Notes: generated from the letters alone by a model not told the origin. 64,000 bases of DNA from Candidatus Latescibacterota bacterium (GCA_965205485.1 OZ242180.1:3616001-3680000), one strand, 5' to 3'; positions 34,327-47,872 are shown, numbered from the stretch's first letter. Numbers and translations are program-made.

Positions 34327-34362
34327 CTGAGCCGCTCCCTGAGCTTGTCGAAGGGTCGGCGA
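34327..34362. repeat. REP-like unit
   Basis: 36 bp identical to 15770-15805. Confidence 0.75.
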
Positions 34363-34800: not shown

Positions 34801-34877
34801 CTCTTGTTTGAGAAGGGACCACCCAGGCCAGATGCTGCCATGAAATGTCCAATCTCAGATCGAGGAGAAGCGCGACA

Positions 34878-37319
34878 GTGAGCAACGCCAACCTGAACTG
34901 GATCGCGAACTATATCTGGGGAATCGCCGACGACGTACTGCGCGACCTGTACGTGCGAGGCAAGTACCGCGACGTGATCCTGCCGATGACCGTGCTGCGC
35001 AGACTCGACGCGGTACTGGAGGACAGCAAGCAGGCGGTCCTGGACATGCAGGCAAATCTCGATAAAATCGGTCTGGTCGACCAGGAGGAGCCGCTAAAGC
35101 AGGCAGCGGGACAGGACTTCTACAATACCTCCAGGTTCACCCTGCGCGACCTGCGCGCCCGCGCGAACCGCCAGCAACTCGAGGCCGACTTCAGGGCCTG
35201 GCTGGACGGGTTCTCCCTGAACGTCCAGGATATCCTCGAGAACTTCGAGTTCCGAAACCAGGTCTCCCGGCTTTCCAGGGCCGACGCGTTGGGGACGCTG
35301 ATCGAAAAGCTGACGTCACCTGATATCAACCTGAGCCCGGCCCCGGTGCACAACGGCGATGGTTCGGTCAGGCACTCCGGCCTCGACAACCACGGCATGG
35401 GGACGATCTTCGAGGAGCTGATCCGGCGCTTCAACGAGGAGAACAACGAGGAGGCGGGCGAACACTGGACCCCGCGCGATGCGGTGACGTTGATGGCGAA
35501 GCTGGTCTTCCTGCCCGTCGCTGATGAGATTACGTCCAGCACCTACCTGATCTACGACGGCGCGTGCGGTACAGGCGGCATGTTGACCGTGGCCGAAGAG
35601 GTCCTTCAGCAACTCGCCGCCGAGCGCGACAAGCAGGTCTCCACCCACCTGTACGGACAGGAAATCAATGCTGAGACCTACGCCATCTGCAAGGCCGACC
35701 TTCTGCTGAAGGGTGAAGGAGATGCGGCGGACAACATCGTCGGCGGCCCGGAGCATTCCACCCTGGCCAACGACGCCTTCCCGTCCCGAGAGTTCGACTT
35801 CATGCTCTCCAATCCGCCTTACGGGAAGAGCTGGAAGACTGACCTGGAACGCATGGGCGGAAAGAAGGAAATGCGGGACCCGCGGTTCGTGATCGAACAC
35901 GCGGACGATCCCGAGTATTCGCTCGTTACCCGGTCCAGCGACGGGCAGATGCTCTTTCTCGCCAACAAGTTGTCCAAGATGAAGGAGGGCGGCAGCCGCA
36001 TCGCTGAGGTGCACAACGGCAGTTCTTTGTTCACGGGTGACGCCGGGCAGGGCGAGAGCAACATCCGCCGCTGGATCATCGAGAACGACTGGCTGGAGGC
36101 GATCGTCGCACTGCCTCTCAACATGTTTTACAACACCGGCATCGCGACCTACGTGTGGGTGATCACCAACCGAAAACCGGAACATCGCCGGGGCAAGGTG
36201 CAGTTGATTGATGCCACCGAGTGGTACCGGCCGCTCCGCAAGAATCTGGGCAAGAAGAACTGTGAACTCGGCGAGGAGGACATCCGGCGCATCTGCGACA
36301 CATTCCTGGCCTTCGAGGAAACCGAACAGAGCAAGATCTTCGACAACGCCGCCTTCGGCTACTGGAAGGTGACGGTCGAGCGGCCGCTTCGGCTCGATGG
36401 GATCGACCCCAACCGCGCCTACAAGGCCTCTGAAATCAAGAAGTTAAAGGAGAGCAGTGAACGAAGCGAAACCGCGCCGCCCGTCATCAAGAGGGTCCAC
36501 AAGAGAGGCACGGAAGCTGACCCGCTGCGCGGCCGGTTCCAGGCTACTGTCGACGGCAGGCCCGTCGTGGTCGAGTACGAACCGGACACCGACCTGCGCG
36601 ACACCGAGCAGATTCCGCTGCAGGAAGAAGGCGGCATCGAAGCGTTCCTGGGGCGGGAAGTCCTTCCCTACGCCGCTGACGCCTGGTATCAAGCGGACAG
36701 CGTAAAAGTCGGCTACGAAATCAGCTTCACTCGATACTTCTACAAGCCCCAGCCCATGCGAACTTTGGAGGAAATCGGGGCGGATATTCTGGCGCTGGAG
36801 AAAGAGACTGAGGGGTTGCTGGGCGATCTTCCGATGGTGCGCGAACCGCCGGCTGTGTACGGCAAGCCGCGCATCTACGTGGATACCTCGGTGATCGGCG
36901 GGTGCCATGATGATGAGGTCCGTGAGGCGTCCATGGAGTTGTTCGAAAAGTTCAAGCTCGGAGATGCTATCCTCGTTTATTCCGATGTCATTCTCAGGGA
37001 ACTGGCGGCGGCGCCGGAAAGCGTGCGCCAGATGATCGATCAGATTCCCGCTGCAAACAAAGAGATGCACTTTCTCACGGATGAGGCAGAACGTCTTGCG
37101 GAAGCTTACATTGATTCCGGGGCTTTAGGCCTTGCGAACCGCGCTGACGCGGAGCATATCGCCCTTGCAACCCTGGCCGAGGCCGACGTTCTGGCAAGCT
37201 GGAATTTCAGGCACATGGTGAACTGGCGACGTAACCGGTTGTATAACTCAGTCAACCGGCAAATGGGGTACGCGGAGTTGAACGTCCTATCCCCGGAGGC
37301 AATCAGCTATGACAAATGA
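34878..37319 (+). CDS. hsdM: Type I R-M methyltransferase HsdM fused to a C-terminal PIN domain
   Basis: IWGIADDVLRD, GEHWTPRD, YDGACGTGGML, NPPY, usual HsdM end (LEEIGADILALEKETEGLL). The frame then continues into IYVDTSVIGG...ILREL...DAEHIALAT...SWNFRHMVN. GTG start after GAGGAG. Confidence 0.9.
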   Translation: MSNANLNWIANYIWGIADDVLRDLYVRGKYRDVILPMTVLRRLDAVLEDSKQAVLDMQANLDKIGLVDQEEPLKQAAGQDFYNTSRFTLRDLRARANRQQLEADFRAWLDGFSLNVQDILENFEFRNQVSRLSRADALGTLIEKLTSPDINLSPAPVHNGDGSVRHSGLDNHGMGTIFEELIRRFNEENNEEAGEHWTPRDAVTLMAKLVFLPVADEITSSTYLIYDGACGTGGMLTVAEEVLQQLAAERDKQVSTHLYGQEINAETYAICKADLLLKGEGDAADNIVGGPEHSTLANDAFPSREFDFMLSNPPYGKSWKTDLERMGGKKEMRDPRFVIEHADDPEYSLVTRSSDGQMLFLANKLSKMKEGGSRIAEVHNGSSLFTGDAGQGESNIRRWIIENDWLEAIVALPLNMFYNTGIATYVWVITNRKPEHRRGKVQLIDATEWYRPLRKNLGKKNCELGEEDIRRICDTFLAFEETEQSKIFDNAAFGYWKVTVERPLRLDGIDPNRAYKASEIKKLKESSERSETAPPVIKRVHKRGTEADPLRGRFQATVDGRPVVVEYEPDTDLRDTEQIPLQEEGGIEAFLGREVLPYAADAWYQADSVKVGYEISFTRYFYKPQPMRTLEEIGADILALEKETEGLLGDLPMVREPPAVYGKPRIYVDTSVIGGCHDDEVREASMELFEKFKLGDAILVYSDVILRELAAAPESVRQMIDQIPAANKEMHFLTDEAERLAEAYIDSGALGLANRADAEHIALATLAEADVLASWNFRHMVNWRRNRLYNSVNRQMGYAELNVLSPEAISYDK

Positions 37320-37506
37320 TACCGCAACCGAGAGATTCGATTGCATCCGTTTTGTGCGTGAGGTCCGTGCGAGGATTGCCGAAGAAACGGCCGGCATGAG
37401 CAATAAAGAGCGAATCCAGTACTTTCGCTCGTATCACTATGAAGACCCTGTTCTGGAACGACTGGCCGTGCCTTTGCGCGAATTGGACGAAGACGAAAGA
37501 GGGTGA
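37309..37506 (+). CDS. Small antitoxin-like protein, FDC paralog 1
   Basis: Overlaps the PIN stop by 11 nt. FDCIRFVREVRARIAEETAGMS..ERI.YF. Confidence 0.7.
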   Translation: MTNDTATERFDCIRFVREVRARIAEETAGMSNKERIQYFRSYHYEDPVLERLAVPLRELDEDERG

Positions 37507-37697
37507 ACCCTGATCAATGTCCTGAGGAGCAGCCGGCACCGCGTGACCGTACCGAGGGTTCGGGACTTGCGAGTTGAAACGCTTGACGGAATCATTGCCG
37601 ACGTCGTGAAGTTTCGTGGTCTGTCCAAACCGAAGTACGAGAAACTCTCTTTGGTTGACTCCAAGATCCCCAGCCTGAAGCCTTTTCCCGCAAAAAA

Positions 37698-37793
37698 GGA
37701 TTCCGGCGCTTCAGGGCATACAACGAGGTCAATCGTCAAAACGGATACCCCGCTATTGACATTCGCACGCCGGAGGAGATCCTCCATGGCTGA
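37698..37793 (+). pseudogene. Start-less C-terminal stub of a PIN toxin
   Basis: GFRRFRAYNEVNRQNGYPAIDIRTPEEILHG* aligns with the hsdM-PIN tail RRNRLYNSVNRQMGYAELNVLSPEAISYDK*. In-frame stop at 37656 and no start codon in between. Confidence 0.7.
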
Positions 37794-38001
37794 TGACACC
37801 CATAAAATAAAGAAATTCGACTGTGTCGAATTCATGCGCCAGGCCCGCGCCCGCATTACCGCCGAAACCGCCGATATGACTGCTGACGAACGGATAGAGT
37901 GGTTCAATTCGAAGCGGTATTCCGACCCCGTGCTGGAAGCAATGGCCGCGCGAATACGCAAATCGAATGAGGACAGGGCAACAGACAATCCTGACGGCTG
38001 A
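37786..38001 (+). CDS. Small antitoxin-like protein, FDC paralog 2
   Basis: MADDTHKIKKFDCVEFMRQARARITAETADMTADERIEWF...DPVLE. SD GGAGG, and it overlaps the PIN stub stop. Confidence 0.7.
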   Translation: MADDTHKIKKFDCVEFMRQARARITAETADMTADERIEWFNSKRYSDPVLEAMAARIRKSNEDRATDNPDG

Positions 38002-38017
38002 ATCGAAGGCAAACTGA

Positions 38018-38068
38018 AGCGCATTGGCCGGCGATGCTCTGCATATCGCTACCGCGACGCTTCATCCT
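38018..38068 (+). pseudogene. Internal PIN-domain remnant
   Basis: SALAGDALHIATATLH matches the PIN D-A-x-H-I-A-x-A motif (DAEHIALAT in hsdM-PIN). Preceded by an in-frame TGA. Confidence 0.55.
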
Positions 38069-38175
38069 GAGGAGGCCAGCCCGCTCAGCATGACCTGTTT
38101 TACGATTGCCAGGCACGTGGCTTCCCGCTGTCATCCAGAGGACTTGCCCTGAGCGTGCGGTCCATGAGCCTTTGT

Positions 38176-38235
38176 CCTGAGCCTGCCGAAGGATAGTCAA
38201 AATGTCGAAGGCGCTGCCCTGAGCTTGTCGAAGGG
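38176..38235. repeat. REP-like units inside the FDC array
   Basis: CCTGAGCCTGCCGAAGG at 38176 and CCCTGAGCTTGTCGAAGGG at 38217. Confidence 0.7.
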
Positions 38236-38468
38236 TGCCGACCCCAGGCCGACGAAGGATCTACTGCAGCATCGCATCATCCTCGAGGGTTTTCAGGTGT
38301 CGATACCTGAGAGGCAGCACGTCCGCCTGCCGCGCGGGTCGGAAGAGGCGAAAATTGCTTCGACTCTGCTCAGAATGACATGCGTTGCGACAAACACCGG
38401 CCGAGGGCAACCTGGTTTCCGTTATCCGACCTTATCCCTGAGTATCCCACGTTTCCTGGACAGCAGTA

Positions 38469-38702
38469 ATGAAGAATAAGAGCAACGCAAAGGCTTTCGA
38501 CTGCGTAAAGTGGACGCGCGAGGTCCGGGAGAGGATCAACGCGGAACTGGCGGGAATGTCCCCGGAAGAGCGGCGTCGGCGGCTCAACGCGGCTGTCCGT
38601 AAGGATCCCTACTTCGCTCGCATTCCGAAGTCCCGGGTTGTGCGACCCTGGCAGGACGATGGGGCAAGCGACGGCGGACGATCCGGCGCCGAGGGCCATT
38701 AA
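38469..38702 (+). CDS. Small antitoxin-like protein, FDC paralog 3
   Basis: AFDCVKWTREVRERINAELAGMSPEERRRRL...DPYF. Confidence 0.68.
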   Translation: MKNKSNAKAFDCVKWTREVRERINAELAGMSPEERRRRLNAAVRKDPYFARIPKSRVVRPWQDDGASDGGRSGAEGH

Positions 38703-38766
38703 TGATGTAGACCGGGAAGGGAACGAAGGCTTGCAGCAGCGTATGGACCAAGCGTGAGATTCCGCT

Positions 38767-38964
38767 ATGACCGATGAAGCCGCTGGCAAGAGATTCGATT
38801 GCATCCGCTTTGTGCGTGACGTCCGTGCGACGATTGCCGAGGAAACAGCCGGCATGAGCAATAAAGAGCGAATCCAGTACTTTCGCTCGTATCGCTATGA
38901 AGACCCTGTTCTGGAACGACTGGCGGCGCCTTTGCGCGAATTGGACAAAGACAAACGAGGGTGA
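38767..38964 (+). CDS. Small antitoxin-like protein, FDC paralog 4
   Basis: 54/65 aa identical to paralog 1 by hand alignment. Confidence 0.72.
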   Translation: MTDEAAGKRFDCIRFVRDVRATIAEETAGMSNKERIQYFRSYRYEDPVLERLAAPLRELDKDKRG

Positions 38965-39157
38965 ACCCCGATCTTTGCCCGGTCGAGTAGCCGGCGAGAA
39001 ACAGGGTTTGCACATTGGTTCGTACAAATCCGCCGCAACCAGACGCGTCAACGCCAGATTGGATTCGGCAATACATCGTGGATCACCCGGCCGGATGGTC
39101 TGAAGACCCGGAGAATCCTGACGCTAAGAATGGCCAAGACACCTGGAGGATATACAG

Positions 39158-39370
39158 ATGAGACGGAGCGGGATCATCTTCGAGGTAACTGAAGCGATTG
39201 AAGGCGGATACGACGCCAGAGCGCTCGGCCACAGCATCTTCACGCAGGGAGAAGACTGGAACGACCTGAAGGCGATGGTGCGAAATGCGGTGCGCTGTCA
39301 TTTTGACGACGAGAACATGCCACGAGTGATCAGGCTGCATCTCGTCAGAGTCGAGGCCATCGCGGTATGA
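39158..39370 (+). CDS. HicB-like antitoxin
   Basis: IIFEVTEAIEGGYDARALGHSIFTQGEDWNDLKAMVRNAVRCHFD. SD GGAGG. Confidence 0.7.
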   Translation: MRRSGIIFEVTEAIEGGYDARALGHSIFTQGEDWNDLKAMVRNAVRCHFDDENMPRVIRLHLVRVEAIAV

Positions 39371-39411
39371 AACTGCCCCGAGACGGGCGCCGAATTCGGG
39401 AGGAAATGGAA

Positions 39412-39735
39412 ATGACAGCGGAAACCCTGAATCAACATATTGAGATCACACCGGGCATTTCAGGCGGCAAACCGCGCATTGCCGGTCGTCGAATTGCCGT
39501 GGAGAATATCGTCATCTGGCACGAGCGCCTGGGCAAGAGCGCTGACGAAATCGCCAGTGATTACGATATTACTCTTGCGGATGTGTACGCAGCACTGGCT
39601 TACTATTTCGATCATCAGAATGAGATTGACCAATCTCTTGAGGAGAGTCGTGCATTTGTAGAATCCTTACGTCAGAAGTTCTCTTCGAAGATTTCCCAGA
39701 AGATTCAAGACCCGACCCAACATGGCAACGATTAA
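39412..39735 (+). CDS. DUF433 family antitoxin (in frame behind a MKLPRD HicA-like stub starting at 39367)
   Basis: HIEITPGISGGKPRIAGRRIAV...EIASDY.ITLADVYAALAYY. Confidence 0.85.
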   Translation: MTAETLNQHIEITPGISGGKPRIAGRRIAVENIVIWHERLGKSADEIASDYDITLADVYAALAYYFDHQNEIDQSLEESRAFVESLRQKFSSKISQKIQDPTQHGND

Positions 39736-40051
39736 GTTTTTGACCGATGAGAATGTTTCCAGAGCAGTTGTAATGGGGCTGCGACGTAGAGGTGTGGACG
39801 TACTGACTGTTGCCGAAGCGGGTAGTCGTGGAGCGTCTGACGAAGTAATTCTCGGAATTGCCGGGGAAACAGAACGCGTCATCTTCACGCAGGATGATGA
39901 CTTTCTTCGTCTTGCAGTAATTGTACATGACCACAGAGGAATTGTCTACACGTCTCAAGAAAATACGGTTGGTGAGATAATTCGTGGCTTGATGTTGATC
40001 CATCAGGTTCTGGAAGCGGAAGAGATGGTTGGGCATGTTGAATACCTGTAG
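39722..40051 (+). CDS. DUF5615 (Mut7-C/PIN-like) toxin
   Basis: FLTDENV...GVDVLTV...SDEVIL...IFTQDDDF...HRGIV. Overlaps the DUF433 gene. Confidence 0.85.
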   Translation: MATIKFLTDENVSRAVVMGLRRRGVDVLTVAEAGSRGASDEVILGIAGETERVIFTQDDDFLRLAVIVHDHRGIVYTSQENTVGEIIRGLMLIHQVLEAEEMVGHVEYL

Positions 40052-40217
40052 AACCCATCGAAATCTTGGCCAATTCAGACCTGTTTGTCGCCCACCGCAC
40101 GATTGCCTTGTACCTTGCGTTGGGCGCTGACGCTTGATTTCGGACGACCAGCGTCGAGCTCAACCACGAAATCAGCTTCACCCGGTTTAGTATAGCCCCC
40201 TCTTTGTAGGTGCCGGA

Positions 40218-41045
40218 ATGCCTTTTCCAGAACCACTCAAGAGAAGGGTCCGTGAACAGGCACTTTTCCACTGCTGTATATGCCAGAAGATATCTGTCAG
40301 TTTGGAAATCCATCATATCATCCCAGAAGCAGCAGGCGGGCCGGATACGGAGGATAACGCGGCACCACTATGCCCCGGCTGTCACGGTGATTTTGGAGGT
40401 AACCCGGAAAAGCGTTCTCGGATTCGAGAGATGCGAGATCGCTGGTACGATATATCCGAGAATTGTGTTATTGGATCCACAAGAAATCCAATGCCAGATT
40501 CTCTTGAAACTGATCGATATTCATTTGCCTGTGACGAGTTTGTCCATCCTCTGATTGTTCGTGAGTTGTTAGGATGGATTTCCGATACATCAGAGACGAT
40601 TGTTGGAGTGGATCTTGAATCGGCCAACACGAGCAATCGGTTCCATGGTGACTTCGAGATAGATGATCGCGATGGCAGAAAGTGGGTGAAGTGGAACGAA
40701 CCTGAGAGTGCCCGGAGAGGGTTTTTCAAATACGCACACATTGCGACTTCGCCAACCGGAGTTGAAATGGTGGAGTGCTACGATTGTGGTGGAGGTAGTG
40801 GCGTATTTGGAAGTGTTGGGCTATTCCTTATTGATCCAGATCGAGCTTTAGACGAATCTTGTTCAGGAAAAATACCCACGCGGGATCGCCAGGTGCTTAA
40901 GGTCCTCGGATCAGTTCGTTTGGGGGATAGATACGTTGGCGAGATTACGTACAATGATAAGATCCTTGCCATTAGTCCAGACGAGGGTAGGATCAGATCT
41001 CTCGGAAGCACTTCAGAGTCGTGCCGCAAGTACCGTATTTTATAG
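40218..41045 (+). CDS. HNH endonuclease with uncharacterised C-terminal domain
   Basis: CCIC...EIHHIIP...GGPDTEDNAAPLCPGCH. Lower GC than the flanks. Confidence 0.8.
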   Translation: MPFPEPLKRRVREQALFHCCICQKISVSLEIHHIIPEAAGGPDTEDNAAPLCPGCHGDFGGNPEKRSRIREMRDRWYDISENCVIGSTRNPMPDSLETDRYSFACDEFVHPLIVRELLGWISDTSETIVGVDLESANTSNRFHGDFEIDDRDGRKWVKWNEPESARRGFFKYAHIATSPTGVEMVECYDCGGGSGVFGSVGLFLIDPDRALDESCSGKIPTRDRQVLKVLGSVRLGDRYVGEITYNDKILAISPDEGRIRSLGSTSESCRKYRIL

Positions 41046-41098: not shown

Positions 41099-42532
41099 GT
41101 GCCCAATCCCATTAACCCATATCCTGCCTACAATCCTCCGAGTGTCGAATGGATCGGCGATGTGCCGGCGCATTGGGAAATTAGGCGACTCCGCACCGTC
41201 GCTGAGTTGCGTGTCAGTAACGTGGATAAGCACACTAAGGAGGGTGAAATTCCCATTCGGCTCTGCAATTACGCCGATGTGTACAAGAACGACCGTATCA
41301 CTTCGGCCATGCCATTCATGAATGCAACGGCTTCGCAGGGTGAAATCGAGAAATTCCATCTGAAGAAAGGTGATGTCCTCATTACCAAGGACTCAGAGAC
41401 TTGGGACGATATTGGGGTTCCCGCCCTGGTAACGGAGCCAGCCATGAACCTTATTTCTGGCTACCATTTGGCTTTGCTCCGGCCTTTCAAGGAGGCGATA
41501 GGGCCGTACCTGGCTCTGACGTTGCAGAGTAAGCCGGTTGCGTATCAGTTTCACGTGCGGGCGAATGGCGTAACAAGGTACGGCCTTACTCACGCTGGGA
41601 TCCAGTCCGTTCGTATCCCGCTCCCACCCCTCCTCGAACAAAACGCCATCGTCCGCTTCCTCGACCACGCCGACCGACGTATCCGGCGCTACATCCGTGC
41701 GAAGCAGAAGCAGATTGCGCTGCTGGAGGAGCAAAAGCAGGCTATTATCCACCACGCCGTCACGGGCCAGATCGACGTCCGAACCGGCCAGCCCTACCCG
41801 GCCTATAAGGACTCAGGTGTGGAGTGGCTGGTGGAGGTGCCGGTGCATTGGGCGGTACTTCCTCTGAAGAGGGCTTTTGGCTCTATGGAGTACGGAATCT
41901 CAGATTCGGGATCCGATGACGGCACTATTGGCCTGCTCACAATGGGGAACGTTCGTGACGGAACGGTAACGGTACCAACGTACGGCGGAGTCACCTCTGT
42001 TGATCCGACCCTGCTACTGCAGGACAAGGATCTACTCTTTAACCGCACAAATAGCCCTGATCTGGTAGCCAAAGTCGGTCTGTTTCGTTCCCAAGGGAGA
42101 CCAATAACTTTCGCTTCGTATCTCGTGCGAATGCGAACCGGCCCTGAAAACAGTCCAGAATACCTAAATCTGCTCTTGAACGATGTAGGCTTCGTGTCTG
42201 TCGCACGAAGAGCAGCAATTCCCAGTCTACATCAGTCGAATCTCAATCCAACCCGTTACGGTCGTCTGAAGATTCCACTTCCTCCTCAGTCTGAACAGGA
42301 GGCAATCGTCCAAGGTGTAACCGAGTGGTCGTCGGTCGTTAATTCTGCGATTGTGAAAACGAACCGTGAAATCGATCACTTACGCGAATACCGCACCCGC
42401 CTGATCGCCGATGTCGTCACCGGCAAGCTCGATGTACGCGATGCGGCGGCTGAACTACCTGAAGAAGACCTCTCGGGTGACGCAGAGGAATCGGCTGAAG
42501 AGTATAAAATCAAAACGGACTTGACCGTATGA
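41099..42532 (+). CDS. hsdS: Type I R-M specificity subunit
   Basis: Two TRDs, each preceded by PYPAY...VEW...VP.HW. IPLPPLLEQ / IPLPPQSEQ, LREYRTRLIADVVTGK. Confidence 0.92.
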   Translation: MPNPINPYPAYNPPSVEWIGDVPAHWEIRRLRTVAELRVSNVDKHTKEGEIPIRLCNYADVYKNDRITSAMPFMNATASQGEIEKFHLKKGDVLITKDSETWDDIGVPALVTEPAMNLISGYHLALLRPFKEAIGPYLALTLQSKPVAYQFHVRANGVTRYGLTHAGIQSVRIPLPPLLEQNAIVRFLDHADRRIRRYIRAKQKQIALLEEQKQAIIHHAVTGQIDVRTGQPYPAYKDSGVEWLVEVPVHWAVLPLKRAFGSMEYGISDSGSDDGTIGLLTMGNVRDGTVTVPTYGGVTSVDPTLLLQDKDLLFNRTNSPDLVAKVGLFRSQGRPITFASYLVRMRTGPENSPEYLNLLLNDVGFVSVARRAAIPSLHQSNLNPTRYGRLKIPLPPQSEQEAIVQGVTEWSSVVNSAIVKTNREIDHLREYRTRLIADVVTGKLDVRDAAAELPEEDLSGDAEESAEEYKIKTDLTV

Positions 42533-42780: not shown

Positions 42781-42989
42781 TAACTGTGGCCGCCGACACA
42801 ACCGGAATTGGACTTGAGTCGAAACAATTCGGTACACATTCCGCAGGAACCACCCGCGTTAACGCCCAATTGAAAGTCCACCGTTGAAAACTTCAACAAG
42901 ACTCATTTTAGTCCCTCGCCGCCACAAGTGTTGCCCATCGCCCGGCAAATGTTTATATTGTGTAACACAGAAACTGTGAGGATGTGACT

Positions 42990-43181
42990 ATGAGAAATAT
43001 TACCGTTTCCGTCGACGAAGAGACCCATCGGCTCGCCCGTATCCGTGCGGCAGAGTTGGACACGTCGGTATCGGCACTCGTGCGAGACTTCCTGAAGAAC
43101 CTGGCTGCCGACCGCGTCGGCGGAACAGCGGCCGCAAGGCAGGACGTTGAGTCCGCAGCCGAACGTCGTCGCGGGATGTAG
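42990..43181 (+). pseudogene. Truncated orphan RHH antitoxin, paralog of 44099-44461
   Basis: MRNITVSVDEETHRLARIRAAELDTSVS shared with the second copy. It stops early and has no PIN partner. Confidence 0.6.
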
Positions 43182-43323
43182 CACGCGGTGATTGAGAAAA
43201 TCACTACCAATGGCGGCCGATTCAGTTGTGGTGAACCACAACACGTTTACGGTTTGATCGCAGACACCTGACGGACGTTGAAGGACCTGCAGAAGAGCGC
43301 ACAGTTGCAGCGGAGGTGAGAAT

Positions 43324-43566
43324 ATGATTGACTGGTCGAAATGCCCGGTCGTGGAGAGCGTGCCTGGGAAGGTGAGCGGGGCCTGGGTGTTCAAAGGAAC
43401 CCGGCTGCCGCTGTACGTCCTCTTTGAGAACCTTGCGGCGGGCGCGACCATCCACGACTTCATCGAGTGGTTCGGAGGTGTGGATGAATCGGAGGTGAAG
43501 GCAGTGCTGGAGCATGTGGCACAGGAGCTCCGTACAAGGGTGGTTCATGCGCATCCTGTTCGATAA
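43324..43566 (+). CDS. DUF433 family antitoxin
   Basis: IDWSKCPVVESVPGKVSGAWVFKGTRLP...FENLAAGATIHDFIEWF. Confidence 0.85.
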   Translation: MIDWSKCPVVESVPGKVSGAWVFKGTRLPLYVLFENLAAGATIHDFIEWFGGVDESEVKAVLEHVAQELRTRVVHAHPVR

Positions 43567-43882
43567 CGGGACACCCAGGCAGTTGCGCGTCCGGCTCTTT
43601 GGCCATGTCGTCGAAGAGGCCAGGGAACGCGGATGGGACGGTTTGGCCAACGGAGACTTGCTGGACCGTGCTGAAGAATTCGGCTTCGATGTCTTGATCA
43701 CGACCGACCAAAGCATCCAATATCAGCAGAACATGCCAGACAGACAGGTGGCCGTGGTTGTCTTGATGCAAACCGCTTGGCCGCGCATCTCGCAGAGAAC
43801 GGAAGCCATCCGCGTTGCATTGGACGAAATCCAGCCCGGCGAAGTCCGGGAAGTCCACATCCCGGCGATAGGCGAAACATAG
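43547..43882 (+). CDS. DUF5615-like PIN toxin
   Basis: MRILFDNGTP...NGDLLDRAE..FDVLITTDQSIQYQQN. Confidence 0.8.
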   Translation: MRILFDNGTPRQLRVRLFGHVVEEARERGWDGLANGDLLDRAEEFGFDVLITTDQSIQYQQNMPDRQVAVVVLMQTAWPRISQRTEAIRVALDEIQPGEVREVHIPAIGET

Positions 43883-44066
43883 CGCGGATCAACGACGCCA
43901 GCAAGAAAGGGCTGGAGCGTCCTGTATGAACGACCCTGGTCGGCCATCGCTGCAATCGCCTCCGGGGTCCGATTGTAGGGGACAGGTTTCGCAGGCGCCT
44001 TTACCAGGTCAACGATGGTAACCCGTCCTGCCGCAGGTCTTGTCCGTGGGCCGGTTGATGACCATA

Positions 44067-44087
44067 CTGTGTTACACAGAAACTGTG
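44067..44087 (+). promoter_or_regulatory. Probable RHH operator CTGTG-TTA-CACAG-AAA-CTGTG
   Basis: Alternating inverted 5-mers just upstream of the RHH ATG. Conserved upstream of the other copy (about 42958-42978). Confidence 0.55.
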
Positions 44088-44098
44088 AGGTTGTGACT

Positions 44099-44461
44099 AT
44101 GAGAAATATCACCGTATCCGTCGACGAAGAGACACATCGGCTCGCGCGCATCCGTGCGGCAGAATTGGACACGTCGGTATCGTCCCTCGTGCGAGACTTT
44201 CTGAAGAGTCTGGCAGAGAACCCGGACACGGATGGCGAATCCGGTTCCGGGTCTGTCGAAACCATCTATCAGCGTCGGTGCAGGCTGCTGCGGGAAGTGC
44301 TCGCGGACTTCGATAGACAGGGCATCGGGTTGCGGATGTCCGACAACCTTCCCAGGGAGGCGTTGTACGATCGCAACGCGGCAAGGGCCGAAGCTGTCGC
44401 CGAGCGGGAGCGGCAGCGCAGTATCTCCGAAGCACTCGGATCCTCACCATGCGATTCGTAG
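44099..44461 (+). CDS. Ribbon-helix-helix antitoxin (VapB-like)
   Basis: MRNITVSVDEE...VSSLVRDFL RHH pattern, LPREALYDR tail. Overlaps the PIN gene. Confidence 0.75.
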   Translation: MRNITVSVDEETHRLARIRAAELDTSVSSLVRDFLKSLAENPDTDGESGSGSVETIYQRRCRLLREVLADFDRQGIGLRMSDNLPREALYDRNAARAEAVAERERQRSISEALGSSPCDS

Positions 44462-44874
44462 ATACCAACATTCTGCTGTATGCTGTCAGCGAGATCCCGG
44501 AGGAGGCCGACAAGCGGGCGCGGGCGGCGGAAGTCCTGACGGAACCCGACCTCGCTGCGTCCGTTCAGGTGCTGCAGGAGTTCTACCACCAGGCCACCCG
44601 GCCGACTCGAATCGGCAGTCTTTCTGGCAATAAAGCATTGCAATTCCTGGAGCCGATTCTGCTTTTTCGGATTCAGACCATGTCGACGGACGTATTTCTC
44701 AATGCCATTGCCATTAGCCGACGATTTCGCCTTTCCTACTGGGATGGCGCAATTCTCGCCGCAGCCCGTGCCTTGGGCTGCGATGCCGTGTACTCCGAGG
44801 ATTTGAGCACAGAACAGGACTACGACGGCCTCCGGGTCATCAATCCGTTCACGCACCAACAGGCTCCGCAGTGA
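44449..44874 (+). CDS. VapC-family PIN toxin
   Basis: FVDTNILLYA, SVQVLQEF, LSYWDGAILAAA, YSEDL, INPF. Confidence 0.9.
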   Translation: MRFVDTNILLYAVSEIPEEADKRARAAEVLTEPDLAASVQVLQEFYHQATRPTRIGSLSGNKALQFLEPILLFRIQTMSTDVFLNAIAISRRFRLSYWDGAILAAARALGCDAVYSEDLSTEQDYDGLRVINPFTHQQAPQ

Positions 44875-47872
44875 ACACAGACACCACCGAGAGCGGGCTT
44901 GAACGCCTGATTTGCGCCGCCCTGACAGGCCAGGGTTGCGAGCCGCCTGTTTCAGGCACCGTGGGAGAACCGCCCGCCGGTTACGGCGGTGTCGGCTGGA
45001 GCTGCGGCAATCACCACGACTATGACCGTGAGTTCTGCGTCGATCTGGCGCAGCTGTCGGCATTCCTGCACGCCACCCAGCCGGAGGCCGCCGAGGCGTT
45101 GCCGCTTTCTGAAGACGGTCCCGTGCGGCGCGCATTCCTGACCCGTCTCCAGGGCGAAATCAGCAAGCGCGGCACCATCGACGTGCTGCGCAACGGGATC
45201 AAGCACGGAGCGTTGAATCTGGACCTGTTCTACGGCACGCCGTCGGCCGGCAATCCGCAGGCACAGGAATTGTTCGAACTGAACCGGTTTACCGTTACGC
45301 GACAGCTTCGCTACAGCCGGGACGATGCGCAGCGGGCGCTGGACATCGGGCTGTTCATCAACGGGCTGCCGGTGTTCACGTTCGAGTTGAAGAACAGTCT
45401 CACCAAACAGACGGTGGACGATGCGGTCTGGCAGTACAAAAAGGACCGCAACCCGCGTGAAAAGCTGTTCGAGTTCGGGCGGTGCATCGCGCACTTCGCG
45501 TTGGACGAACGCGAGGTGCGTTTTTGTACGCACCTGAAGGGGAAGGCGTCCTGGTTCCTTCCCTTCAACCGCGGCTGGAACGACGGGGCGGGCAACCCGC
45601 CCAATCCGGACGGTCTTTCAATCGCCTATCTCTGGCGCGAAGTCCTCACCCGGGAGAGTCTCACCAACATCCTCGAGAATTACGCGCAGGTGGTGGCGTC
45701 GAAGGACGAAAAGAGCGGAAGGCAGCGAAAGACTCAGATCTGGCCGCGCTACCATCAACTCGACGTGGTGCGCCGCCTGCTGGCCGACGCGGGCGACCGC
45801 GGCGCCGGTCAGCGCTACCTGATCCAGCACTCCGCCGGCAGCGGCAAGAGCAACTCCATCGCCTGGCTCGCGCACCAGTTGATCGGACTGGAGAAGGACG
45901 ACGCTCCGGTCTTCGACTCGATCATCGTCGTCACCGACAGGGTCATCCTGGACCGTCAGATCCGCGACACGATCAAGCAATACGCCCAGGTGGCGGCAAC
46001 GGTCGGACACGCCGACCGCTCGGGCGATCTTCGTGAGTTCATCGAAAGCGGGAAGAAGATCATCATTTCCACGGTCCAGAAGTTTCCGTTCATTCTGGAC
46101 GAGATCGGCAATGAACAGCAGGGGAAGCGCTTCGCCATCATCATCGACGAAGCCCACTCGAGCCAGGGGGGTCGTACCAGCGCGGCGATGGCTCAGGCGC
46201 TGTCGGAGGCAGGCGAAGAGGACGATCAGGATACCTTCGAGGACCGGATCAACCGCCTGATGGAGTCGCGCAAGCTCCTGCCCAACGCCAGCTACTTCGC
46301 GTTTACCGCCACGCCGAAGAACAAGACGCTCGAGATCTTCGGCGCTCCGGAACCGCAGCCGGACGGTTCGGTGAGGCATCGCGCCTTCCACAGCTACACC
46401 ATGAAGCAGGCGATCCAGGAAGGATTCATCCTGGACGTACTGTCGCACTATACGCCTGTGGCGAGCTACTACAAGCTTGCCAAGACGGTTGAAGACGACC
46501 CCGAGTTCGACGCTCGAAAGGCGCAGAAGAAGCTGCGCCGCTTCGTGGAGGGCAGCGATCACGCGATCCGCCTGAAGGCCGAGATCATGGTCGACCACTT
46601 CCACGACCAGGTGCTGAAGCAGGGCAAGATCGGCGGCGCGGCGCGGGCGATGGTGGTCACGAACGGCATCGAGCGCGCGATTCAGTACTATCACGCCATC
46701 CGCGACTATCTCAAGGAGCGCAAGAGCCAATTTGAGGCGCTGGTCGCGTTCTCCGGCGAACACGACTTCGGCGGCGGCAGGGTAAGCGAGGCGTCGCTGA
46801 ACGGCCTGCCTTCGGCCCAGATCGCCAGGCGATTTCAGGAGGATCCGTACCGGTTCCTGGTGTGCGCGGACAAATTTCAGACCGGCTACGATGAGCCCCT
46901 GCTGCACACCATGTACGTAGACAAGACGCTGTCCGGCATCAAGGCCGTGCAGACGCTGTCTCGCCTCAACCGGGCCCACCCGAAGAAGCACGACGTGTTC
47001 GTTTTCGACTTTCTCAACGACACCGATACGATTCAAGACGCGTTTTCTGACTTCTACCGGACGACGATTCTGGCCGATGAGACCGACCCGAACAAGCTGC
47101 ACGACCTGCAGGCGAACTGGACGGACCCCAGGTCTATTCTGAAACGCAGGTCGACGAGTTTGTGCGGCTCTATCTGGAAGGGGTGGAACGCGACCGGCTG
47201 GATCCTATTCTGGACGCTTGTGTCGCGGTCTATCGACACGACCTTGACGAAGACGGCCAGGTTGCATTCAAGGGCAACGCCAAAGCATTCGTGCGTACGT
47301 ACGCCTTTCTTTCGTCCGTGCTTCCGTATAACGTTGCCGAATGGGAAAAACGTTCGATTTTCCTGAACTTCCTGGTGCCGAAGTTGCCGGCGCCCGAGGA
47401 AGAGGACCTCTCCAAGGGAATCCTGGACGCGATCGATCTGGACAGTTATCGGGTGGAGAAGCGGGCGATGCAACGGATCCTGTTGGAGGACGAAGATGCC
47501 GAGATCGATCCGGTACCGGGTTCAGGGGGAGGGCATCAACCGGAGCTGGAATTGGATCGACTTTCCAACATCATTCGGGAATTCAACGATAACTATGGGC
47601 ATATTAAATGGGCAGATGAAGACCGTGTACAGCAACTCATCGTCGAGACAATTCCCGCCCGCGTCGCCGCTGACACCGCGTTCCAAAACGCCCGGGTAAA
47701 CTCCGACCGGCAGAATGCACGGATCGAACACGACAAGGCGCTGCTGCGCGTGATGACCGCCATGATGAAGGACGACACCCAGCTATTCAAGAATTTCATG
47801 GACAATCCTGGCTTTAAGCGCTGGATGACTAACAAGGTGTTCGGACTTGCGTACAATCCGGTAGAGAGGTAA
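44871..47872 (+). pseudogene. hsdR: Type I restriction endonuclease HsdR with a 1-nt frameshift near 47115 (real or sequencing error)
   Basis: DIGLFINGLP..FELKN, QHSAGSGKS, DEAH, FTATP, QTLSRLNR. At GCG-AA-CTG-GAC the homologous reading (LDGPQVYSETQVDEF) moves to the frame of ORF 47162-47872. Confidence 0.85.

Follow-up and report, generated by a model that had tools for sequence, protein, structure and literature searches.

The window analysed here is a 64,000-nt stretch of the genome of a Candidatus Latescibacterota bacterium (GCA_965205485.1 OZ242180.1:3616001-3680000), and it contains a type I restriction-modification (RM) operon in which hsdM, hsdS and hsdR all lie on one strand. Behind hsdM stands an array of four small paralogous genes, here called FDC genes, interleaved with fragments of PIN-domain genes. 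A first-pass annotation of this DNA had described the array and read it as a series of displaced PIN cassettes; it had missed that the PIN domain upstream of the array is the C-terminal domain of HsdM itself. The features that carry the argument are the following, in window coordinates.

34845..37319, + strand: hsdM and C-terminal PIN in one frame, 824 aa; the start may be 34878; HsdM_N and N6_Mtase matches, MTase_I in PADLOC
36654..36842, + strand: hsdM 3' segment (aa 604-666), a downstream copy of which recurs in congeners
36870..37319, + strand: PIN tip A of 149 aa; fold like VapC, acidic D5, E44 and D93 present (structure model, fold match, conservation)
37309..37506, + strand: FDC copy 1, 65 aa, cognate to tip A; overlaps the PIN stop by 11 nt; complex prediction weak
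37786..38001, + strand: FDC copy 2, orphaned tip-B partner, 71 aa; 85% identity to a tip-B cognate across 71 aa
38469..38702, + strand: FDC copy 3, orphaned tip-C partner, 77 aa; 92% identity to the tip-C cognate across 76 aa
38767..38964, + strand: FDC copy 4, orphan of the copy-1 type, 65 aa; 83% aa identity to copy 1; also in genome G006

The PIN domain is an in-frame fusion that makes up the last 149 residues of the 824-aa HsdM. Its model has a predicted local distance difference test score (pLDDT) of 90.7 and matches VapC (4xgq_A) with a Z score of 12.9 and a root-mean-square deviation of 2.2 over 117 aligned residues. Pfam PIN and PIN_3 gave weak matches to 7-9 of 11 relatives and none to the window tip itself, a Protein Data Bank sequence search with a PIN profile returned nothing below E 0.19, and neither the PADLOC 2.0 models nor NCBIfam matched the PIN tip or FDC. 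The tip is probably an active ribonuclease.

All four FDC open reading frames of 65-77 aa, with their shared motif, are present as first reported, and their alignment holds 17 invariant columns, including F-D-C, R17, R20, I23, E26, A28, M30, E34-R35 and D46-P47. In this alignment copies 2, 3 and 4 are 49%, 37% and 83% identical to copy 1; compared pairwise with the resident partner, the orphan copies 2 and 3 are 50% and 40% identical. Copies 1 and 4 lie within a 235-nt repeat of 88% identity. Searching the 5.13-Mb genome (one contig) with a profile of the four copies recovered these four and one distant lone relative (G000:C1:2778398-2778571), by which no PIN was detected; a distant stand-alone PIN gene in the same genome (G000:C1:1094800-1095231, 28%) has no FDC match beside it. 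Contig pieces from a public run, which may be the source sample, match the array exactly over 37406-37777 and with 2 differences over 38479-38877. A promoter and terminator scan of the + strand of the array gave nothing useful, and no RNA run was listed as containing the stretch, a result without bearing on expression. We treated a 152-aa frame with a GTG start that enters copy 2 as spurious; it has no family and overlays a hicA remnant and a PIN tail.

PIN relatives in genome_contigs were counted as the best 80 of 585, ranked by likeness to the window PIN, so that HsdM fusions are over-represented among the 80. An FDC gene stands directly behind the PIN in 78 of them, which bears out the linkage that the first-pass annotation had proposed as a check, and an intact PIN without FDC occurs in at most 2. 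The PIN is fused to HsdM in 59 of the 80, across several phyla: titles of fusion records name Gammaproteobacteria, Acidobacteriota, Gemmatimonadota, Rhodothermales and Spirochaetia, the stand-alone pairs include archaea, and among titled records the closest are metagenome-assembled genomes of Latescibacterota and Gemmatimonadota. N6_Mtase was found in all 120 listed of 174 long PIN relatives, which puts the fusion in at least 120 protein clusters. Within the PIN set E44 (80/80), D93 (79/80) and H96 (80/80) are conserved, none of which was in the search patterns; D5 is conserved in 80/80, but was part of a search pattern. Across 48 full fused loci, pairwise identities of PIN and FDC correlate with a rho of 0.72, as against 0.22 for PIN and HsdM and 0.21 for FDC and HsdM, the pairs being not independent.

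Several FDC matches occurred at 20 of the 59 fused loci vs 1 of the 21 unfused. These 20 comprise 15 arrays with extra downstream FDC genes or remnants, 2 loci with distant copies and 3 with two FDC motifs in one open reading frame. Eight of the 15 arrays lie outside the home lineage, and unfused loci have none such (p=0.008; p=0.09 once 9 home-lineage loci are removed; loci not independent). The FDC profile extends to 2265 clusters at 50% identity. Of 20 members inspected (including P0245, P0252, P0255 and P0325), some carry two motifs, some join PIN and FDC in a single chain and one is an FDC-HsdS fusion; natural PIN-FDC single-chain fusions are P0288, P0292 and P0329. None of 729 matching plasmid records covered the HsdM-PIN junction at 80%, and viral contigs yielded one distant stand-alone PIN-FDC locus, so these collections pointed to no vehicle.

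The comparison with congeners (n=11) shows what happens at the hsdM 3' end. On HsdMs that are 92-96% identical, 8 frames of 827-835 aa carry a PIN and 3 frames of 662-674 aa do not; including the window, tip type A occurs in 3 genomes, B in 4, C in 1 and D in 1. The cassette exchange suggested earlier is supported by four tips or none on nearly the same carrier. PIN tips are 80-99% alike within a type and 51-64% between types, cognate FDCs are 31-52% alike between types, and a distinct FDC type stands behind each tip type. Relative to the window, DNA identity runs at 74-100% per 50 nt until PIN position +50 and then falls to 42-70% in tips B and C, which marks the left breakpoint; past it, both tips keep an island of 80-96% DNA identity at the SWNFRH motif. 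In one genome (G001), hsdM-PIN D-FDC has behind it another complete cassette, made up of the hsdM 3' segment, PIN A and FDC1. Arrays in congeners contain 1 to 4 FDC copies, and their order varies too. Pieces of relatives at about 90-95% identity were also present in run X5 (labelled sponge metagenome), one of the runs with small word shares, which were given no weight as signs of habitat. Because copies 2 and 3 match the partners of tips B and C, and because tip and FDC types are linked, a history of orphan cassettes is supported. The alternative tips, their type-specific pairing, the left breakpoint and the origin of copies 2 and 3 stand, like the fusion, as direct results of these comparisons.

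The spaces between the FDC genes, and the DNA behind them, contain the debris listed here.

37528..37660, + strand: 3' remnant of a hicA toxin gene; aligns with the intact hicA of G002, G004 and G006; Pfam HicA_toxin for an intact relative
37705..37793, + strand: start-less tail of PIN tip B, holding the GGAGG ribosome-binding site of copy 2
38030..38062, + strand: internal PIN fragment GDALHIATATL, truncated by the repeat element
38057..38385, no strand: dispersed repeat with imperfect inverted arms; each segment has 16-29 matches in the genome
39158..39370, + strand: HicB-like gene, intact; labelled by position (before a Pfam HicA gene in G002, G004 and G006), with no Pfam match of its own
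39415..40051, + strand: DUF433-DUF5615 toxin-antitoxin pair (domain search)

Both stubs reported earlier align to PINs of relatives. The tail before copy 2 is indeed start-less, being 93% identical over 27 aa to the end of an HsdM-fused PIN in a relative and 52% to the resident PIN; its DNA homology begins near 37705, not 37698, and it overlaps copy 2 by 8 nt. The DALHIATAT fragment is a real PIN piece (10/10 match to a relative's PIN) located at 38033-38059, 38018 being the start of its stop-free frame. In relatives this fragment extends into the SWNFRH motif; in the window the repeat element cuts it. As for the repetition of copy 1's stop/ATG overlap at copies 3 and 4, the three 12-nt strings occur once each in the genome, at the FDC genes named, but they lie within FDC codons 1-4, so for copies 3 and 4 the FDC gene itself carries them, and no PIN-homologous DNA was detected upstream of either copy in the window. 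The first reading had also overlooked that the spacer at 37528-37660 is a HicA remnant.

The repeat element, which we take to be REP/MITE-like, is missing between FDC2 and FDC3 in G004, G006 and G014 and in one contig of run X5, and a further copy lies near 34337. A six-codon hicA stub is the sole remainder behind the HicB-like gene (39158-39385); G002, G004 and G006 retain the whole pair. A short stretch present several times over in the congeners' loci (39049-39140, L037:7411-7767, and behind FDC2 in L039) has no Pfam match and resembles a REP-associated transposase end (RAYT-like). PIN fragments join this transposase-end-like stretch at a shared RIR-x-Y, which suggests microhomology junctions.

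What FDC does bears on how the array is read. Its overlap with the PIN stop, its co-divergence with PIN, its persistence after PIN loss and the rarity of PIN without FDC suggest that FDC is the antitoxin of PIN and neutralises it. Complex prediction scored 0.52 for PIN-FDC vs 0.01 for the best control, with 96% contact agreement between runs and a partner pLDDT of 66-68; the mark that it attains is shared by 116 of 157 solved pairs and 2 of 215 mismatched ones, and scores at 0.60 or under include 18 of the 157 solved pairs and both mismatched pairs. The predicted FDC fold consists of three helices, for which Foldseek found nothing at E<=0.001; the Atlas matches for FDC were unnamed clusters only. 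A stand-alone relative annotated as VapC family, whose partner is FDC-like (hhalign 82.5%, E 1e-5), adjoins a plasmid replication gene; the parts of PMC6406750 covered here do not identify this plasmid PIN relative as a tested module. FDC could instead be an activator, adaptor or sensor subunit of PIN, with extra copies widening what is sensed. The toxin-first order, the want of a known antitoxin fold and the frequency of tandem two-FDC proteins would suit such a role, and the complex prediction fits inhibition and activation alike; yet FDC outlasts deletion of PIN, and intact PIN so seldom occurs without it (<=2/80), that the pattern is antidote-like. We regard an activating or sensing role as very improbable.

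Across 12 locus segments of 11 genomes, 17 of 20 orphan FDC genes are intact (16 if one without a start is removed), vs 17 PIN remnants, all broken, and 1 intact orphan cassette. In the same segments hicA is intact in 3 cases and broken in 5, vs 5 and 1 for hicB, and DUF5615 is intact in 9 and broken in 6, vs 19 and 4 for DUF433; this skew is like that of PIN and FDC, and a need for toxins to go first would produce it.

The surviving orphans might be a selected bank of immunity, in which expressed orphan FDCs neutralise incoming PIN tips (anti-addiction) or permit a safe switch of tip; hsdM-PIN alleles, plasmids and islands of neighbours are possible sources of such tips. Besides the intactness of the orphans, their match to tips circulating within the genus and the recurrence of arrays at 8 loci of other lineages point this way, and anti-addiction by orphan antitoxins is proposed in PMC7354431, in the portion considered here. 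In 4 of 8 orphan FDC2 cassettes, which represent no more than two lineages, 4-6 of 15 residues of the PIN tail have changed (cognates 1), with the FDC core still within the cognate range. The ratio of nonsynonymous to synonymous substitution rates (dN/dS) is also low, at 0.44 (0.26-0.66) for orphan FDC2 and 0.23 (0.11-0.44) for FDC3, similar to the 0.40 of cognate FDCs. However, dead PIN-B tails are equally low (0.22-0.31), and we therefore rejected pairwise dN/dS as proof of selection on orphans; it mostly records time spent as working cassettes.

Other observations argue against such a bank. Anti-Shine-Dalgarno duplexes of -9.5 and -10.6 kcal/mol were calculated for copies 1 and 2 vs -3.0 for copy 3 and -4.7 for copy 4, so the ribosome-binding site is strong at copy 2 (GGAGG, inside the tip B tail) and weak at copies 3 and 4; the DNA upstream of copy 3 has been replaced by the repeat element. 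Copy 4 shares its type with copy 1 and brings no evident added specificity, several arrays likewise repeat the resident type, and 3-4 of the 20 orphans are broken. When the congeners' arrays are set aside, 28 distinct FDC loci remain, of which 9 have an intact PIN in front, 1 a split PIN, 9 a short tail and 9 none detected; with 9 of 28 behind an intact PIN, lone FDC genes are common, and short genes remain open long by chance. At four loci (L137, L144, L145 and L152) all that remains of the PIN behind a tip-less hsdM is its final 10-13 codons, and the FDC next to them is intact; in two of these loci the FDC motif is changed to FAC. The equal dN/dS of dead tails, the weak sites of copies 3 and 4 and the resident type of copy 4 count against the proposal that the orphans are kept as an immunity bank, which we hold to be possible but unlikely.

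The remainder of the operon, from the array to hsdR, contains the following features.

40113..40184, + strand: hsdM 3' segment, second copy, eroded; 71% over 72 nt; congeners hold orthologous, better-preserved copies
40218..41045, + strand: HNH nuclease gene embedded upstream of hsdS (domain search)
41099..42532, + strand: hsdS (domain search)
44871..47870, + strand: hsdR, with a frameshift near 47125 relative to congeners that is either a real inactivation or an assembly error

The gap between hsdS and hsdR (42921-44874) holds two ribbon-helix-helix (RHH)/DUF6364-like genes (185-nt repeat, 85%), a DUF433-DUF5615 pair and a canonical PIN, and the number and integrity of these toxin-antitoxin genes differ among congeners. 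Other defence-type genes embedded in congeners' loci (L033:6186-8291, L038:7706-8086 and L038:2964-4143) encode GmrSD, ThsB-like TIR proteins and an 8xMP membrane protein. The hsdS genes of congeners are only about 29-52% identical. In one congener (L032 of G002), hsdM, hsdS and most of hsdR are lost, and hicBA, an intact orphan FDC2 and a PIN pair are retained.

A further reading is that toxin-antitoxin debris and repeats collect in the RM operon as in a sink, the fusion being an accidental read-through and the FDC copies functionless duplicates. The locus is rich in fragments, with a repeat element and several other toxin-antitoxin pairs, its hsdR is frameshifted, G002 keeps its orphans despite the loss of hsdM, and a 'genomic sink' idea for embedded genes appears in the portion of 10.1101/2024.01.29.577857 covered here. 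Accidental read-through is hard to square with a fusion found at 59 of 80 loci, in several phyla and at least 120 protein clusters, with a dN/dS of 0.22-0.26 for fused PINs that retain their acidic residues, or with the strict co-divergence of PIN and FDC; we think it quite improbable that all of this is neutral.

We conclude, with moderate confidence, that exchange of tips at the HsdM C-terminus together with toxin-first decay explains the array. A reverse-order PIN-FDC cassette, with a VapC-like ribonuclease first and a small helical partner second, would have been grafted onto the HsdM C-terminus. Cassettes would then be swapped by recombination in the shared DNA of hsdM and the first PIN codons on the left and at an imprecise junction on the right, and older or foreign cassettes would thereby be left downstream of hsdM. 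A displaced PIN without a start would decay, usually to the last codons, among which the FDC ribosome-binding site lies, as the four tip-less loci appear to show cleanly. The FDC genes would remain because loss of the toxin is free and earlier loss of the antidote lethal, a proposed filter on the order of loss; a swap or deletion that removed the old FDC while the old PIN was present would kill, and FDC genes would accumulate. The array may then be a record of tips A, B and C and of a further A-like tip. For the purpose of the fusion we give about equal weight to addiction that would stabilise the RM operon and to a PrrC-like guard that an attack on the RM complex or on FDC synthesis would trigger.

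Several observations weigh against this conclusion. A single FDC stands at 39 of the 59 fused loci, so a swap usually leaves no array. The copies are mosaic, and the direction and timing of the swaps fit more than one order. Drifted PIN tails beside kept FDC cores are not what passive decay alone predicts. FDC belongs to no Pfam, NCBIfam or PADLOC family, and its complex score with PIN falls in the weak band.

The arrangement resembles several known systems without coinciding with any. Like orphan cdiA-CT/cdiI and rhs-CT/rhsI modules, as described in the parts of PMC3150448 considered here, it has a conserved carrier, a polymorphic C-terminal toxin and, immediately after it, a small cognate gene; the orphans downstream occur in other strains as fusions to the full-length carrier, and a stretch from the carrier's 3' end is repeated. 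Interchangeable tips, a co-varying downstream partner and carrier-fused orphans were all found here. In contrast to those systems, the carrier is a cytoplasmic methyltransferase (HsdM_N and N6_Mtase, with no secretion domain found by Pfam, NCBIfam and PADLOC scans), all tips belong to one PIN family, and the orphan toxins are nearly all destroyed, with 1 intact orphan cassette vs 17 fragments. Since export is lacking and the orphan toxins are dead, the system is not a member of the cdiA/rhs class of polymorphic toxins. The likeness to Rhs/CdiA first proposed therefore holds for the organisation of tips and orphans, but not for delivery to other cells or for orphan toxins, which are almost never intact. 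Overall, the interpretation in the first-pass annotation is partly supported.

As in VapBC systems, according to the covered sections of PMC5499597, there is a VapC-like fold with acidic active-site residues, an overlapping small partner and weak PIN/PIN_3 matches. Unlike there, the partner lies downstream and has no known family or DNA-binding fold, the toxin is fused to HsdM, and the upstream RHH, AbrB, Phd or helix-turn-helix antitoxin is absent. Those sections report co-transcription of PIN genes and genes for type I RM subunits and contain no mention of an HsdM-PIN fusion, Supplementary Figure S7 lying outside their scope. The comparison with PrrC in EcoprrI, as far as the consulted portion of 10.1101/2024.01.29.577857 describes it, extends to variable toxin or nuclease genes between hsdM, hsdS and hsdR on the same strand and to a ribonuclease as possible RM back-up; the window effector, by contrast, is covalently joined to HsdM and has a partner gene of its own. 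Toxin-less antitoxin-like genes, read as remnants or protection, are likewise described in the parts of PMC7192599 and PMC7354431 covered, but the orphans here are stacked at one locus and assignable to alternative alleles of the upstream gene. Anti-addiction as a common use of orphan antitoxins is called undemonstrated in PMC7354431, in the text considered.

Literature titles and abstracts, a scope that left aside subscription journals and supplements such as PMC5499597 Figure S7, included none on an HsdM-PIN fusion or on the present array, and a direct link between RM and toxin-antitoxin systems is listed as not shown in section 17 of PMC5499597, one of the sections covered. HsdM-PIN is a direct covalent link of a restriction-modification enzyme to a toxin-antitoxin pair, and its partner brings to light a large unnamed family. 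The fusion and its tip exchange are a stronger result than the immunity bank. The series of tips and partners A-D offers a ready matrix for antitoxin specificity and orphan protection. It is a tentative and rather unlikely proposal that type I HsdM carries the toxins of a polymorphic system acting inside the cell, whose alleles pass among co-occurring bacteria from several phyla and in which expressed arrays of tip-specific antitoxins provide immunity against rival alleles; if true, a swappable PIN tip would guard the restriction complex or make each hsdM allele addictive.

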